From a virus (lineage: Duplodnaviria; Caudoviricetes): 64,000 bases of DNA. Of the stretch, positions 1 to 50,078 are shown piece by piece (the stretch's first letter is position 1; each line of letters begins with the position of its first letter). Location: positions 1-64,000 of IMG/VR virus record IMGVR_UViG_3300046526_000409. One strand, written 5' to 3'. The position numbers were made by a program, and so were the translations under genes. Below the pieces are notes generated by a model, which searched no databases, was not told the origin of the DNA, and saw only the letters and a list, made by a program, of their open reading frames with translations.

Positions 1-59
1 GGCACCACGCATGGCGCCCCCGATCGCGCCCAAGATTCGGGCGCGATATGAGAGAGAGT

Positions 60-304
60 GACGCTACGGGTAACGGTGGCGGTACCTCTGTGTTAGCTCT
101 TGCCACCACGTATCCACGGACTGTCTGTCCCCATGCTGTGAAAGCCACGGACGTCCAGTCACGCGCATTTGGTCCCCTCCTATAAGAGTTCGGCGACAGT
201 AGGCAGACTTCACCCCTGTTGCATGCGCGCCCTATCGACACGTCGGTCGATAGTGAGGACCTCTCGGTCCCCGTGCAGAAACGTCGTTACCGTTCCCGTG
301 CGTC
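60..304 (-). ncRNA. Candidate ~245-nt multibranched structured RNA (or structured leader)
   Basis: Closing stem 304-291 with 75-60; internal stems 75-80/102-107, 119-123/156-160, 162-168/223-229, 232-239/246-253; GGACC-GAGA-GGUCC GNRA hairpin at 255-272 on the minus strand; no credible CDS. Confidence 0.55.
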
Positions 305-310
305 TATATC

Positions 311-372
311 CACTGTTGAGTTCTCAAACAACGACCGCTTCCTTTGTACTAACCCTCTCGGGCGTTCCTCCG
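311..372 (-). promoter_or_regulatory. rRNA-leader-like antitermination element (GAGA-loop hairpin plus boxA-like TTGTTTGAGAACTCAACAGTG)
   Basis: Minus strand reads CGGAGGAACGCCCGAGAGGGTTAGTACAAAGGAAGCGGTCGTTGTTTGAGAACTCAACAGTG, closely resembling actinobacterial rrn leaders as recalled. Confidence 0.7.
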
Positions 373-436
373 TGCGGTACTTCCTGCCTGCTTTCCGAGG
401 CTCCGTTTCCGGCGCCCCTTCCTGCTGACAAGGAGA

Positions 437-3546: not shown

Positions 3547-3975
3547 ATGAGCGATGAATTGCAGATCGAGCAGGACCGCGCATTGGTCGAGCTGGCCGCG
3601 GCGAAGCTGCTGAAGACGTCGAGTGCGGCTGTGCAGGAGAAAGGCCGGCGGCGGTACGTCCAGTCGCAGACGCGGGGGAGCCGTACCCCTGTGGTGGTCG
3701 ACGACGTCGAGAAGCCGAGCTGCGTGATCGAGGTGTTCGCGCCGCGCTATGAGTTCGTCCTGGAGCACCTGGCGCTGATCGGTTCGCCGGCGCTGGGCTG
3801 GACGGTGGCTGTGTGGCTCGGGACTGTCGTGACGCGTTGGGATGTGGCGGCTCGCGAGGAGCGGGGTGCCGCGGTGGAGGTTGCGGCGGAGCTGCTGAAG
3901 TACCAGAAGCGGGATTTGGGCTTCGGCCGGCATCAGTGGGTGCCGATCAGGGCCGCCGTGGATGAGGCGGCGTGA
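3547..3975 (+). CDS. Hypothetical protein
   Basis: ORF with Streptomyces-like codon use, leaderless-type start. Confidence 0.65.
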   Translation: MSDELQIEQDRALVELAAAKLLKTSSAAVQEKGRRRYVQSQTRGSRTPVVVDDVEKPSCVIEVFAPRYEFVLEHLALIGSPALGWTVAVWLGTVVTRWDVAAREERGAAVEVAAELLKYQKRDLGFGRHQWVPIRAAVDEAA

Positions 3976-4047
3976 GAAGTCAAAACAGGTAGCGGGCCTG
4001 CGCTCGGTGGTGGATCCTGATCTGTTGCCCATAACGAGGAGTACCGC

Positions 4048-5364
4048 GTGGAGATCCAGTCGCTGGAGCAGTTGCAGGCTGCCGACCGCACATCGCTTGC
4101 CTTCACCCCTTATGGGCTGGGGCAGATGGAACCTGGAGACGCCGCGCGGTTCCAGCAAAGTCAGATTGCCTCGTGCAAGTTGAGCACTGATGTCCCGGAG
4201 CGGACACGCGGAGCGTTCGAGGAACTCACGAAGCTCTTCGCGCAGGGCGTCTTGTGCTACAGCCTGTACACCCGAGTCCAGGACGATGCGGTGCTGCGGC
4301 TGGAGGGCGCGTTGCGTGACCGGTTCGTCCAGTGGTGCGGCGGCTCGGTGACGTTTGAAGACGTGGCCGGGACGCTGCCTCCGTATTCAGTGGACGTGGC
4401 CACGCCGCAGTCAGTGAGTGACGCTTGTAAAGGACTACCCAAGGGGAGCAGGGCACGTAGGCCGAAGTGGCGCCTTCGGGTCGGCGGTCAGTTGATCTTC
4501 TTCAATGGCATGCTGAGCAGCCTGATGAGCTGGGCCCGTTGCGCGGGCCTGTTGCGCGGCCAGCGGGCACGCAAGGTGGAGTCCCTCCTGGTGGAGCGGC
4601 GTAATTCTGTGGCTCACGGCGACTCTCACATCGACACCCCCGTGGCGGCGGCACGGGCGCTGCGCGATCTTGCCGAGTTCATCAACCAGCTCTGGGGACA
4701 TCCGACTCCGGGTGGCCGGCTGTATCCCGCGCAGGTCCCTCGGGAGGTTGCCGTGCTCGCCTGGGACGGCGCCGGCAGCATCTCTCTTGGTTCGCCTGAG
4801 TCTGTCGCCGCCGACGAGGGCACCGAGGGGTACAGCCATGTCGTTGTCCGTTCGGCGTCCGCACCGGGCATGCAGGTGGAGGACTCGCACTGGATGGAGT
4901 TCGACGCACGGTTCGAGACGACGCAGTACCCCACGGAGCATTTGTGGGGGCCGGTCAGCCGTAGCGAGGCCGTGGCGTGGCTGGATGCCGAACGCCCGCA
5001 GGGTGACAGCGTGGAATTCCTGGACCGGGTCTTCATGGTCCGGTCCGTCGGGGACCAGGTCTACCCGCCGATGCGGCCGGAGGTCGTCGCCGGATTGGAC
5101 AGCGCCCTCTGTCAGGGAACCTGGCACACGCTGCGCGCTGACTTCCCGTTGGACGCTTTTAACCACGTTCGCGGTGGCATCGATCGGTCATCCGGGCACA
5201 CCAGGCGGCCAGGGGACTGCACCGCGTGTGCTGTCCAGGAACTGGGCAGGGGAACTCACGCCGAGGCGCTAGGCGTGGCAGAAGCGGTACTCGGCACGCT
5301 CAGTCCTGTACGGCCCCACACCGTTCACATCCCGGACTCGATCCACTGGCCAATCCGGTTCTGA
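4048..5364 (+). CDS. Hypothetical protein with HEPN-like RxxxxH motif
   Basis: 438 aa; helical N-half ending ERRNSVAHG; RBS GAGGAG. Confidence 0.75.
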   Translation: MEIQSLEQLQAADRTSLAFTPYGLGQMEPGDAARFQQSQIASCKLSTDVPERTRGAFEELTKLFAQGVLCYSLYTRVQDDAVLRLEGALRDRFVQWCGGSVTFEDVAGTLPPYSVDVATPQSVSDACKGLPKGSRARRPKWRLRVGGQLIFFNGMLSSLMSWARCAGLLRGQRARKVESLLVERRNSVAHGDSHIDTPVAAARALRDLAEFINQLWGHPTPGGRLYPAQVPREVAVLAWDGAGSISLGSPESVAADEGTEGYSHVVVRSASAPGMQVEDSHWMEFDARFETTQYPTEHLWGPVSRSEAVAWLDAERPQGDSVEFLDRVFMVRSVGDQVYPPMRPEVVAGLDSALCQGTWHTLRADFPLDAFNHVRGGIDRSSGHTRRPGDCTACAVQELGRGTHAEALGVAEAVLGTLSPVRPHTVHIPDSIHWPIRF

Positions 5365-5651
5365 TGAGACGTAGTGCGTCCGCCGGCCGGCGGTAGACCA
5401 GATCCGGTACGAACGTTTGCAGCGCAACAGCACCGAGGCGTTGTCTGTGGTGGATTGGGCGGCTCGGCCGGCGATGCGTGGCCGAAAGGTGCGTGGGGAC
5501 GTCTGCGAGACCTCGTGTGCAGACGTGACCGCGGGGTGCAAGCGATTGCGGACTGACGTATGAGTTGCGCTTTACAACCAGAGGGATTTAGACCTCTGTG
5601 AGGATTGTGTGAACCAGCAGGTCAGCTCCTCCTTACTGCCGGTATGAGGAT

Positions 5652-5732
5652 CCTCTGAGGTTGGTCTCGCGAGGGTTAACGGATGATGAACGAGCCTCGT
5701 TCAAGTGACGCTCGTCACTACAACCTCAGAGG
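5652..5732. repeat. 12-bp perfect inverted repeat
   Basis: CCTCTGAGGTTG (5652-5663) / CAACCTCAGAGG (5721-5732). Confidence 0.8.
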
Positions 5733-6018
5733 GTCTCGTGCGTCCCAGTGATCACTGTGCGGTGGCTCAATCAGCACTGTGCGTGGCATATGCCCACGTC
5801 AGGTGACGGTTACCGGCGGACACACGGCGAGGTGACGCACGAAGAGTTGAGCAAGACTCACATCTGCTTCTGTGGCACAAGAAGATCCACAAGATGGTGA
5901 ACAAGTCGTGTGGGTGGTACATGTGGAACCCGCCGTTCGGGTAGGCCGACTGAACGGCTGGTCAGTATCAGTCCATACGGGCGTTCGAACGTTCGTAAAT
6001 CGGGGTGGGGTGTGCGCC

Positions 6019-6270
6019 ATGACGTTGGTCGCCGGGGTGGAGGACTCGGGAGCGGTCCCGGTCCTGAAGGCAAGTGTCTTCATGCGGCAGGCGCCGTTTG
6101 TGCGTACTGACGAGGACGTTCCTCATGAGGGATCGATCCCTGATCTGTACGGGCTTGAGGCCGAGGCGGCGATGGAACAGGCCATCGAGCAGGGGCTGTT
6201 GCGGTGGTCGGTGAACCTGAAGACGGGGGAGACGGTGCTGACGCGTTCTAATCGTCAATCGAACACCTGA
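6019..6270 (+). CDS. Small hypothetical protein (start uncertain)
   Basis: 3' part of ORF 5872..6270. Confidence 0.4.
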   Translation: MTLVAGVEDSGAVPVLKASVFMRQAPFVRTDEDVPHEGSIPDLYGLEAEAAMEQAIEQGLLRWSVNLKTGETVLTRSNRQSNT

Positions 6271-6446
6271 TTGGTTTGTGACTCACCAGGCTTATCTTGT
6301 GGCACAAGTAGGCGAACAAGTTGACCAACTCGTGGTCTATAGTGGCGGCCATCGCTGCAATGTAATGAGTTAGGTCCGCAACGAGCGGGACACCTTGACG
6401 AACTTTCGCCGCCTTCGGAATGCGGGCGGCTACGGAAGGAGCGCTC

Positions 6447-7088
6447 ATGGCTACTGAAAAGCCACGGTGCACCCGGCTAGTAGGCCATGACGGCTCCGGC
6501 CGAGAGATCAACTGCGGTAAGCCGGTTCCCGGCCGACCGCTTCATATCGAGATCAACGGCGCGAGGGCACTCGACCTCGTTCTGTGCGGCGAGCACAAGG
6601 CGGAGTGGTACGAACACAACGCGCCGTACTTTGACAGGGCTCAGGCGGCGAAGGTCGCGCTGGAGAAGCTGTTCGAGGACCACGCCGGCAACCTCTTCAC
6701 CACGGCTGAGATTCGGGCGTACCTGCGCGCCAGGCTGCATGAGCGCGACGACCTTTTCCGTGACCGCAAGGAGCGGGAGTTGGTCGCGGCTCTCCAGGAC
6801 CGGGGCAAGCTCAGCTTCGCCGTGGAGGACCTGTTCAAGGAAGTCCGGCGTCGTGAGGAGGAGCTGGAAGGGGGCGACTGGGAGGACGTCACCCCCTCGA
6901 AGGTCCGAGAGTTCCTTAATACAGCGTTCGACCACAAGGACGACAGGCTCTCTCCACAGGACATGCGTTTGATCGCCAGCATGCCGGGGACGGGTATGCC
7001 TGCGCAGCCTCTGATGGAGCTGTACGCCCGGCTCCGGCGGTCGGACCGGGACCGGTCCACCACGGACGATCCGGCGGTGCACTCGTGA
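6447..7088 (+). CDS. Lsr2-like nucleoid/regulatory protein
   Basis: N-terminal EING..LDLVLC..H...PY dimerisation-like segment; EIRAYL...DRGKLS...LF DNA-binding-like segment plus a second degenerate copy. Confidence 0.6.
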   Translation: MATEKPRCTRLVGHDGSGREINCGKPVPGRPLHIEINGARALDLVLCGEHKAEWYEHNAPYFDRAQAAKVALEKLFEDHAGNLFTTAEIRAYLRARLHERDDLFRDRKERELVAALQDRGKLSFAVEDLFKEVRRREEELEGGDWEDVTPSKVREFLNTAFDHKDDRLSPQDMRLIASMPGTGMPAQPLMELYARLRRSDRDRSTTDDPAVHS

Positions 7089-7140
7089 CGTTATTACGGG
7101 GCCGCGCACGCGGCTTCCCGGACCTGGAGTTGACCTAACT

Positions 7141-7184
7141 CAAGAGGGGCTGAGCACTCGGAAGTCCGAGGCCGGCCCCTCTTG
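7141..7184. terminator. Hairpin/terminator
   Basis: CAAGAGGGGC...GCCCCTCTTG inverted repeat. Confidence 0.6.
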
Positions 7185-7215
7185 CTATTTCAGCGAGTTG
7201 CAAGGAGCGCAGCGC

Positions 7216-13266: not shown

Positions 13267-14823
13267 ATGACATCGACGGACGCAGGCGGGACTCAAATAC
13301 CGGACGACGAGGAGTTCCTGCTCCCTGTCAATCCCGAGATATCCCAGGAGACCGTCGACCGCATCATCGGGAAGATGCTCCTGGTCATCGACGAGTTGTC
13401 GGGCCATCCGCTCCGCGACTACCAGGTACCGCTCGCCCGCAGGATCCTGGAGTCGATGATCCTCGGTGACACGTCGAAGATCACCGCATGCTGGGCACGT
13501 CAGTCCGGCAAATCCGAGACTCTCGCGAACACGCTCGCGGCCACCCTGATCATGTTCCCCCGCCTGGCACCGATCTTCCCCAACCTCCTGGGGCGCTTCC
13601 GCGAGGGCGTCTGGCTCGGTGCCTTCGCGCCCGTGGACGACATGGCGGAGAACATCTACGGCCGCATCGTCTCCCGGTTGACCAGTGACCGCGCACAGGA
13701 GCTGATGGCCGACCCTGAGATCGACGAGAAGGTCGTCGGAAAGGGCAAGGAACTGCGGCTGGTGAAGTGCGGCAGCCTCGTGCGAAAGCAGACCTGCCAC
13801 CCGCGGGCGCAGATCGAAGGCCGCACGTACCACGTCGTGCTGATCGACGAGGCCCAGGTCGCCGACGAGAAGGTCGTCAACAAGTCGATCAGCCCCATGC
13901 TTGCCTCGACGCGAGGGACGATGATCCTCACGGGGACCCCGACCTACACCAAGGGCGTCTTCTACAAGATCATCCAGCAGAACAAGCGGCAGGCGACCAA
14001 CCGAGGAGCCCGGCCCAACCACTACGAAGCCACGTGGAAGGACGTCGCCAAGGCGCATCCCGACTACGGCGTCTACATCCGCGGCGAAATGCTCACCATC
14101 GGTGAGGACTCCGACGAGTTCCGTCTCTCCTACCGGCTCCAGTGGCTGCTCGACCGAGGCATGTTCACGACCTCCGAGCGGATGGATGAGCTGGGGGACC
14201 GGTCGATGCAGACCGTTCCGGCCTGGCACCGCACCCCGGTCATCGTCGGCATCGACCCCGCCCGCAAGCAGGACTCAACGATCGTCACGGTGATCTGGGT
14301 CAACTGGGACTACCCGGATGAGTTTGGCCAATACGAGCACCGGATCCTGAACTGGCTCGACCTCTCGGGGCTGGGCTGGGAGGAGCAGTACTACCGGATC
14401 GTCGACTTCCTGGCCAACTACTCCGTGCTCGCCATTGGCATCGACGCGGGCGGCATCGGTGACGTCGTCGCCAGCCGGCTGCGCGTCCTCATGCCCAGCG
14501 CCGACATCATCGATCTGCCGTCCGACCGCGGCGCACAGTCGAAGCGGTGGAAGCACCTGATGGAACTGATGCGGACCGACAACGTCTCCTGGCCGGCGCA
14601 CTCCAAGGTCAAGCGCACCAGGGTCTTCCAGCGCTTCCGCCAGCAGATGGAGGACGCCGAACTCGACTTCCAGGGCCCCAACGTCATCGTCCACGCCCCC
14701 GAGGAGGCCGGCGCCCACGACGACTACGTCGACAGCCTCGCCAACGCCGTCTACATGACCGCCGACCTTTCCATGCCCGAGATCCAAGAGGAGAGCAACT
14801 TCCTCTACTCCAGGGCCGCCTAG
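13267..14823 (+). CDS. terL: Terminase large subunit
   Basis: ARQSGKSE Walker A, VLIDEAQ Walker B, TGT coupling motif, GIDPA and HDDYVDSLA nuclease motifs. Confidence 0.95.
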   Translation: MTSTDAGGTQIPDDEEFLLPVNPEISQETVDRIIGKMLLVIDELSGHPLRDYQVPLARRILESMILGDTSKITACWARQSGKSETLANTLAATLIMFPRLAPIFPNLLGRFREGVWLGAFAPVDDMAENIYGRIVSRLTSDRAQELMADPEIDEKVVGKGKELRLVKCGSLVRKQTCHPRAQIEGRTYHVVLIDEAQVADEKVVNKSISPMLASTRGTMILTGTPTYTKGVFYKIIQQNKRQATNRGARPNHYEATWKDVAKAHPDYGVYIRGEMLTIGEDSDEFRLSYRLQWLLDRGMFTTSERMDELGDRSMQTVPAWHRTPVIVGIDPARKQDSTIVTVIWVNWDYPDEFGQYEHRILNWLDLSGLGWEEQYYRIVDFLANYSVLAIGIDAGGIGDVVASRLRVLMPSADIIDLPSDRGAQSKRWKHLMELMRTDNVSWPAHSKVKRTRVFQRFRQQMEDAELDFQGPNVIVHAPEEAGAHDDYVDSLANAVYMTADLSMPEIQEESNFLYSRAA

Positions 14824-49606: not shown

Positions 49607-49921
49607 ATGGACAAGGTAAGCATCGTCAATCTTCTGGTGGGTGCAGTCCTCCCTCTTCTGGTCGCGTTCGTCTCCAAGGAGACCTGGGCTGGCTGGGTCA
49701 AGGGCACCATCCTCGCGGCGCTCTCGGCGGCTGGCGGTCTGGGCACCGAGTACATAGCGGGCCCCGACGGCTTCAACCTGACCATCGCCGGCTGGTCCGC
49801 AGCGTCGGCCTTCGCCTTCGGTGTCGCCGCGCACTACGGCGTCTACAAGGACACCACCCTCCAGGAGCTGCTCGCCAAGGCGCTCTACAAGGCGCCAGCC
49901 GCGGTGGACGTCTCTGGCTGA
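49607..49921 (+). CDS. Putative holin
   Basis: 104 aa, 3 TM, end of late operon. Confidence 0.7.
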   Translation: MDKVSIVNLLVGAVLPLLVAFVSKETWAGWVKGTILAALSAAGGLGTEYIAGPDGFNLTIAGWSAASAFAFGVAAHYGVYKDTTLQELLAKALYKAPAAVDVSG

Positions 49922-49939
49922 TCGAGTACCACGCACCAC

Positions 49940-49968
49940 GAGCCCGTCCCGAAATCCGGGGCGGGCTC
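49940..49968 (+). terminator. Terminator ending the late operon
   Basis: GAGCCCGTCCC...GGGGCGGGCTC. Confidence 0.7.
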
Positions 49969-50078
49969 GATGCTTGTTGGCCAACTTGTTCCACAACTTG
50001 TACGTTAAGATGTTCCACAAGTCATGATCCCCGGCGCGTCCGCTCGGACGGCGCGACGTGCCCGTACAAGGAGCACAA

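Follow-up and report, generated by a model that had tools for sequence, protein, structure and literature searches.

A conserved, covarying RNA fold behind a near-copy of the host rRNA-operon leader in a Streptomyces prophage

Untranslated RNA is the natural target of Rho. In phage lambda, which is also known to use host boxA, nut sites and host Nus/boxA antitermination are found together with an RNase III-sensitive N leader, in which a large structure lies between the nut site and the first gene. The rrn operons escape Rho by means of a boxA-nucleated complex (PMC10250234; PMC4807359). The E. coli leader-trailer helix requires more than 17 bp, and its RNase III site shares bases with boxC (PMC10250234). 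The use of host boxA by phages is already known, as in T7 (PMC3709561); at the locus described here the RNA family and the host phylum are new, the rrn leader is copied more fully, and the neighbourhood is unusual.

The stretch of DNA analysed (the window, 64,000 nucleotides) comprises bases 1-64000 of a 91,966-bp IMG/VR 'provirus' record (G000). Its structural genes resemble those of Streptomyces siphoviruses of ~113-116 kb, such as BRock and Alone3, and a T4-type large terminase is encoded at 13267-14823. A colinear element of 75-88% identity is present in three virus records (G001-G003) and in two Streptomyces genomes (G048 and G181). On this comparison the window is assigned to a conserved Streptomyces prophage body of ~88 kb, and the RNA is hence taken to be phage-borne. 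A large serine recombinase (Resolvase and Zn_ribbon_recom), annotated as a serine integrase, lies beyond the window at 88753-90804 of the record; it carries a C-terminal DUF4096 (IS4/5 transposase-like) segment and sits in a 4-kb stretch which is absent from the relatives. No terminal repeats joining the two record ends were found. Coding genes in the window were chosen at a GC3 of at least 0.72, and bases 1-1760, at whose left end the RNA is located, are without a credible gene.

Fold, covariation and strand of the 245-nt RNA

The minus strand from 304 to 60 folds into a multibranched structure of 245 nt and 11 helices. An RNA of about this size and strand had been proposed in an earlier note made from the letters of the window, and every helix listed there is present in both our minimum free energy and our consensus structures. 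The whole is closed by P1, a long-range helix of 16 bp with two bulged bases (304-289 with 77-60), which bears out the closing stem previously drawn at 304-291/75-60. P2 (287-275 with 117-105, 11 bp) stacks on P1 only across a three-way junction formed by P1, P2 and P10. A five-way junction joins P2 to P3 (272-266 with 261-255, capped by a GAGA loop), P4 (253-246 with 239-232), P5 (230-223 with 168-161) and P8 (160-156 with 123-119), and an inner three-way junction joins P5 to P6 (222-212 with 204-193) and P7 (188-185 with 180-177). The remaining helices are P9 (152-143 with 137-127), P10 (104-102 with 80-78) and P11 (98-95 with 87-84). P3, P4 and P8 coincide with the GAGA hairpin 255-272 and the stems 232-239/246-253 and 119-123/156-160 of the earlier note, and its stem 162-168/223-229 is slightly refined in P5. 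The stem placed at 75-80/102-107 corresponds roughly to P10.

The minus strand has a predicted folding energy of -105 kcal/mol, the mean for shuffles being -86.9 (z -4.19), and none of the 200 shuffles folded as low, the comparison with shuffles having been put forward in the earlier note; the plus strand gives a z of -3.11. Homologues were collected in two ways. An exact-pattern scan of IMG/VR with the boxC-containing 19-mer gave 22 loci, three of which (L007, L013 and L020) continue into the same RNA, and BLAST of ~800 Streptomycetaceae species genomes gave two further members, L165 (G048:C21) and L166 (G181:C2). The family has therefore six known members including the window copy, with identities of 82-95% among them. 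A covariance model built from four members recovers L165 and L166 at full length (265 and 232 bits); in none of the loci examined does it detect a paralogue or a distant copy. An exact 20-mer had no match in 185,579 species genomes and two chance matches in metagenome contigs, further patterns in IMG/VR returned the known three only plus one tandem-repeat artefact, BLAST against 50,697 phage records gave matches confined to the rrn-leader part, and BLAST against plasmids gave nothing relevant.

In the alignment of the six sequences (A4), 94 consensus pairs are paired in 98.6% of cells and 15 of them show double, compensatory changes, so that the covariation among homologues which the earlier note had set as a test is present. 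The observed pairing, double-change count and covariation score were reached by 0 of 500 shuffles, and pairing fell to only 30-47% when the partners were slid by 1-3 columns as a control. This covariation excludes chance folding. Between two and four compensatory pairs are found in each of P3, P7, P8 and the hairpin that trails the RNA. P1 is paired in all 96 cells and includes one compensatory pair (G-C to A-U in L165), most of it being invariant across the six members. P6, P10 and P11 are likewise invariant and are thus neither supported nor contradicted, since they never vary among six closely related members; the most striking invariant stretch, GGCAAGAGCUAACACAGAGGUACC, lies in P10/P11.

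Among 561 paired cells on the minus strand there are 63 G.U and only 3 A.C, and one-sided changes lead to G.U on this strand at 13 pairs. If the same helices were read on the plus strand, pairing would be 87.9%, compared to 98.6% on the minus strand. The imbalance between G.U and A.C, together with the promoter and leader found on the same strand, points to the structure belonging to a minus-strand RNA, although G.T pairing in single-stranded DNA is possible in principle.

Constraint on the RNA is much stronger than on its surroundings. Compared with G001-G003 it is 93% identical with zero indels over 245 columns, as against 58-86% identity in the flanks; taken by part, identity is 67% in the promoter region, 58% in the next 230 nt, 64% in the trailing hairpin and 97% in a short CU-rich linker. 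Stop codons are present in all six frames of every member examined and GC3 is 0.56-0.64, and the region is for these reasons considered not to be coding. The 11-helix fold is thus conserved, covarying and strand-specific.

The earlier note recognised no known RNA family here, and the same was found on searching. Rfam 15 at gathering thresholds returned no family over the whole window, and at E<=10 over 1-1800 and 1-360 it returned chance-level matches only, none of them on the RNA. ARAGORN reported neither a tRNA nor a tmRNA in the window. A derivation from the host rRNA or the rrn leader was considered and rejected: Smith-Waterman scores against the leader plus 16S (1-130) were at the shuffle mean, short-word BLAST against the whole rrn operon gave chance matches, and the SSU and LSU models gave no match on the RNA. 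No match to TROVE (Ro60) or RtcB was found in G000, G001 and G003 or near the element in G181 and G048, and a bacterial or phage Y RNA (YrlA-like) was rejected as there is neither a TROVE or RtcB gene nor an Rfam or ARAGORN match. A literature search of incomplete coverage found neither this RNA nor a copied rrn leader described for Streptomyces phages. From these comparisons, the element is classed as a structured non-coding RNA of an undescribed family.

The leader and promoter upstream

A putative sigma-70-type promoter is present on the minus strand at 437-466, with a -35 element TTGTGC (466-461), an 18-nt spacer and a -10 element TAGCTT (442-437), and the motif would place the start of transcription near 430. 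TTGTGC-N18-TA(G/A)NNT occurs 138-154 nt upstream of boxC in all six members (6/6), and was not flagged by a generic promoter scan. The spacer has two different sequences among the members and yet its length is constant, as expected of a real promoter.

Between this promoter and the RNA lies a boxB-like hairpin, CGCCC-GAGA-GGGTT (351-364, minus strand), which is near-identical to the one that Streptomyces rrn leaders carry at the equivalent position (host counterpart GCCCGAGAGGGT in L058, L111, L086 and L066) and whose stem changes compensatorily between phage copies (alignment A2). It is followed by a boxA/boxC sequence, AAGCGGTCGTTGTTTGAGAACTCAACAGTGGA (309-340, minus strand), which matches the host rrn leader and occurs once in the window. 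In four Streptomyces genomes the 15-mer TTGAGAACTCAACAG precedes 16S rRNA by 169-188 nt; it is common across Actinobacteria, often at contig ends. Around the motif, ~60-75 nt are nearly identical between the phage and the leaders upstream of 16S in seven Streptomyces genomes, and this stretch holds the GCCC-GAGA-GGGT hairpin, AGTACAAAGGAAGCG and boxA/boxC in the same order; the rrn leaders of the two hosts G181 and G048 are 79-89% identical to window 313-376. The phage leader is therefore a near-copy of the Streptomyces rrn antitermination leader with boxB hairpin, boxA and boxC. What the earlier note had called a boxA mimic belongs to a true copy of that leader.

P1 begins 5 nt after the boxC-containing 19-mer, with boxC outside the helix, and the RNA therefore takes up the position of an rRNA. 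In the host, the 23S leader-trailer helix has the boxA/boxC of the spacer (GAGAACUGCACAGUGGACGCGAGC) as its 5' strand, the partner being the 3' flank of 23S; this helix was read directly from the flanks, RNAduplex on leader plus trailer having over-extended and been uninformative. In a viral contig of 106 kb (L024, IMGVR_UViG_3300006169_000009, 3650-7189), the same boxC motif stands right in front of 21 tRNA genes and a tmRNA gene, showing that actinophages do place genes of stable RNAs behind such a leader.

The same rrn-leader copy is also present in ~70 sequenced Streptomyces phages of the Likavirus/R4-like group, including L002 (Hydra 49776-50070), where it lies ~700 nt from the right end, between a consensus promoter and leftward genes, and is followed by a different, shorter stem-closed structure. 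Homology of the 245-nt RNA to these or to other post-leader structures of viral contigs was rejected, as the covariance model finds none and the Hydra region folds differently. In four rhizosphere metagenome runs, contig depth rises 4- to 100-fold over window 301-400 and there only, and short contigs of many other actinobacteria match the rrn-leader copy at these positions. None of the public sequencing runs listed for the RNA and leader stretch is an RNA run.

Two further features were observed in the non-coding DNA to the right of the leader. At 730-953, in non-coding DNA where the leftward leader and the rightward genes diverge, a repeat array of GGCTCAC(A/G)GCGG / CACGCTGCCTCGC is made of two units of ~100 nt placed 126 nt apart, and could be a set of protein-binding sites. 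The non-coding stretch 1001-1400 is 86% conserved among relatives, compared to 58-73% in neighbouring stretches, and a further functional element may lie in it; at 1567-1546 the minus strand has a terminator-like hairpin, noted together with this stretch.

Proposed role and the sequences downstream

We favour, at a probability of about 0.5, the reading that the RNA is a module in an untranslated leader resembling that of an rrn operon, protected from Rho through boxA and probably excised as a stable RNA. About 0.7 kb of folded untranslated RNA precedes the genes, so the phage would need the same protection from Rho as an rrn operon. In the proposed mechanism, host NusB/NusE and their partners would load at boxA and make the polymerase resistant to Rho across the folded untranslated stretch. 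The 5' strand, tethered at boxA, would be kept close to the polymerase for the ~225 nt that pass before the 3' strand emerges, and such tethering might help P1 to close as a miniature leader-trailer helix. A double-strand-specific nuclease, for which RNase III is the obvious candidate, or other nucleases could then free a stable RNA of ~245 nt. The likeliest action of this RNA would be to bind a protein with its conserved loops and junctions. Since P1 has 16 bp with two bulges, against more than 17 bp required in E. coli (PMC10250234), and P2 is set off from it by the three-way junction, P1 is not an obvious RNase III substrate, and its cleavage by this enzyme seems plausible but not assured. 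A specific partner for the RNA is suggested by how strongly it is conserved, by its lack of indels and by the constancy of sequence in its loops and junctions. The earlier proposal of a novel phage ncRNA positioned like a pre-rRNA is thus supported in part, in the sense of an undescribed and phage-borne RNA, placed directly after the rrn-leader copy and enclosed by a long-range helix; its processing belongs to the reading given here as probable.

What follows the RNA in its relatives bears on this reading. Window positions 1-21 hold the 5' strand (GGGGGCGCC..., minus strand) of a second closing stem, which is cut by the end of the record. In L165 this stem (GGGGGCACCG...CGGTGCCCCC, 10 bp, its counterpart beginning at window 21 to 13) encloses a 16S rRNA-like fragment, in which L165:1847-2065 matches positions 101-347 of the Rfam bacterial SSU model (127 bits, E 4e-37) and helices 6 and 10 are shortened (region 1826-2130). 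L166 and L020 are without the 16S-like fragment and keep the stem as a hairpin. L166, and only this relative, has an extra domain of ~215 nt between boxC and the RNA (L166:1300-1500), with a perfect 10-bp closing stem GCTAGCGAGC/GCTCGCTAGC and no Rfam match. From these gains and losses, the leader emerges as a string of stem-closed modules that are independently gained and lost, and the 245-nt RNA is the first of several such modules in a long untranslated leader. A bolder version, which we consider unlikely, is a miniature pre-rRNA in which the excised 245-nt RNA and the trimmed fragment of the 16S 5' domain would be decoys or scaffolds aimed at host factors connected with the ribosome (such as ribosomal proteins, assembly factors or the Nus/S4 machinery), or in which the CUCUCUCUC tail would be an anti-Shine-Dalgarno mimic tuning ~20 downstream GAGAGGAGAGAG genes.

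The strongest rival, which we regard as a real possibility, is that the RNA is never released and is a purely cis-acting leader domain serving the downstream operon. It might protect the 5' end, insulate the coding part from the Nus-loading site in folding, or use its CU-rich tail and a Shine-Dalgarno-like loop to control translation. Same-strand genes do follow the RNA 390-700 nt downstream in L020, L165 and L166, which are all three of the loci with downstream DNA, and the absence of a U-tract terminator after the RNA also agrees with a cis role. In this genome such an operon would lie outside the window, to the left of the record edge; it is known from three relatives, L180 (G048:C21:49000-64000), L181 (G181:C2:730500-745500) and L038 (G003:80001-94789), where it comprises small same-strand genes over at least 13 kb. 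Pfam gave nothing on the operon proteins of these relatives. Almost all of the genes are headed by an identical extended RBS, GAGAGGAGAGAG (10-21 copies per locus), of which the whole G000 record has only one per strand, and nearly every gene is then followed by a Hammerhead type II or Pistol ribozyme; of 47 Rfam matches in the three loci 46 are ribozymes, the remaining one being the 16S-like fragment. The CU-rich linker ACUCUCUCUCAU that follows the RNA (48-59, minus strand) is invariant save for a 1-nt deletion near its 3' end in L013, and 7-8 of its bases (CUCUCUCUC) are complementary to this RBS. The near-invariance of the linker and its complementarity to the RBS of 10-21 operon genes per locus speak for a cis role, and one may speculate that the pairing is functional. 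Against such a role, 11 helices, invariant loops and zero indels are more than a stabiliser usually needs, the modules are gained and lost independently in the manner of genes, and in another phage (L024) the same leader drives a tRNA/tmRNA array.

A GC-rich hairpin of 9-10 bp lies after the linker at 23-47 on the minus strand (47-38 with 33-23), as the earlier note had described, and four of its pairs show compensatory changes in the six sequences. A multi-way junction closed by P1, with a covarying GC hairpin 12 nt further on, has the look of an aptamer with its expression platform, and a riboswitch-like or protein-sensing attenuator, whose junction would bind a ligand or protein and thereby set read-through of the 47-23 hairpin, was therefore weighed. 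We consider this very unlikely. The hairpin, read from 47 to 23, fails the intrinsic-terminator pattern because no U-tract follows it, and the antiterminator at the upstream boxA would override a terminator switch. P1 and P2 are moreover far too long and stable to switch, the sole alternative pairing found, between GGGCGCG in P5 and CGCGCCC in the hairpin, does not survive in L007, where the hairpin sequence differs, and there is no match to an Rfam riboswitch.

Just past this hairpin three records (G000, G001 and G002) end, within a few bases of where the 16S-like match starts. The shared end suggests that the provirus was cut at an rRNA-like gene call, which is the most economical reading. 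Position 1 as a physical genome end (telomere, cos site or phi29-like layout) was rejected, as DNA continues beyond it: the Logan contig of the probable source run extends 132 nt further, and the sequence also continues in G003, G048 and G181. A phi29-type packaging RNA was likewise rejected, since the record, and not the DNA, ends at position 1, and the terminase is of T4 type. A structure acting at the level of DNA (for instance as an attachment site, as a signal for replication or packaging, or as the folded terminus of a linear replicon) might have been suspected from the three coincident ends and from the better-than-shuffled folding of both strands, but it is highly improbable given the continuing DNA, a shared cut that points to a gene-call boundary, the pairing of 98.6% on the minus strand compared to 87.9% on the plus strand (with G.T pairs in single-stranded DNA possible in principle), and the promoter and rrn leader that immediately precede the structure on its own strand.

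Significance and comparison with known systems

Structured phage RNAs that have firm comparative support and belong to no family are scarce, and in actinophages scarcer still, and early gene control in actinophages is poorly understood. At this locus a temperate Streptomyces phage has copied the whole rRNA-operon leader of its host and has put its own folded RNA in the place of the rRNA. Were the RNA excised and active in trans, it would represent a new class of phage effector RNA tied to host ribosome synthesis. If it is a leader only, the locus would be a clean natural case of boxA antitermination carrying polymerase over ~0.7 kb of folded untranslated RNA. It could also serve as a compact natural system in which to study the help that long-range helices receive from the rrn antitermination complex in closing.

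The closest parallel is the rrn operon. The phage carries a near-copy of its leader, and the long-range helix around the folded RNA starts directly after boxC, much as the host 23S leader-trailer helix starts at the spacer boxA/boxC (PMC10250234). In contrast to the rrn operon, the enclosed RNA of the phage is only 245 nt long and without detectable similarity to 16S, 23S or the leader, its helix is shorter (16 bp) and excludes boxC, and protein-coding genes come after it. The early boxA of T7, like the boxA behind the putative promoter here, lies downstream of host-type early promoters, where host polymerase reads through a long phage unit (PMC3709561). As in the N leader of lambda, a large structure lies between a nut-like site and the first gene; however, neither an N-like protein nor a lambda-type boxB is evident here. 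The locus differs from both lambda and T7 in the wholesale copying of the rrn leader and in having a multi-branched, covarying domain instead of a single hairpin. With phage tRNA/tmRNA arrays, such as that of L024 behind the same boxC motif, it would share the excision of untranslated structured RNAs from a precursor with an rrn-type leader, although the 245-nt RNA is itself not tRNA-like by ARAGORN or Rfam.
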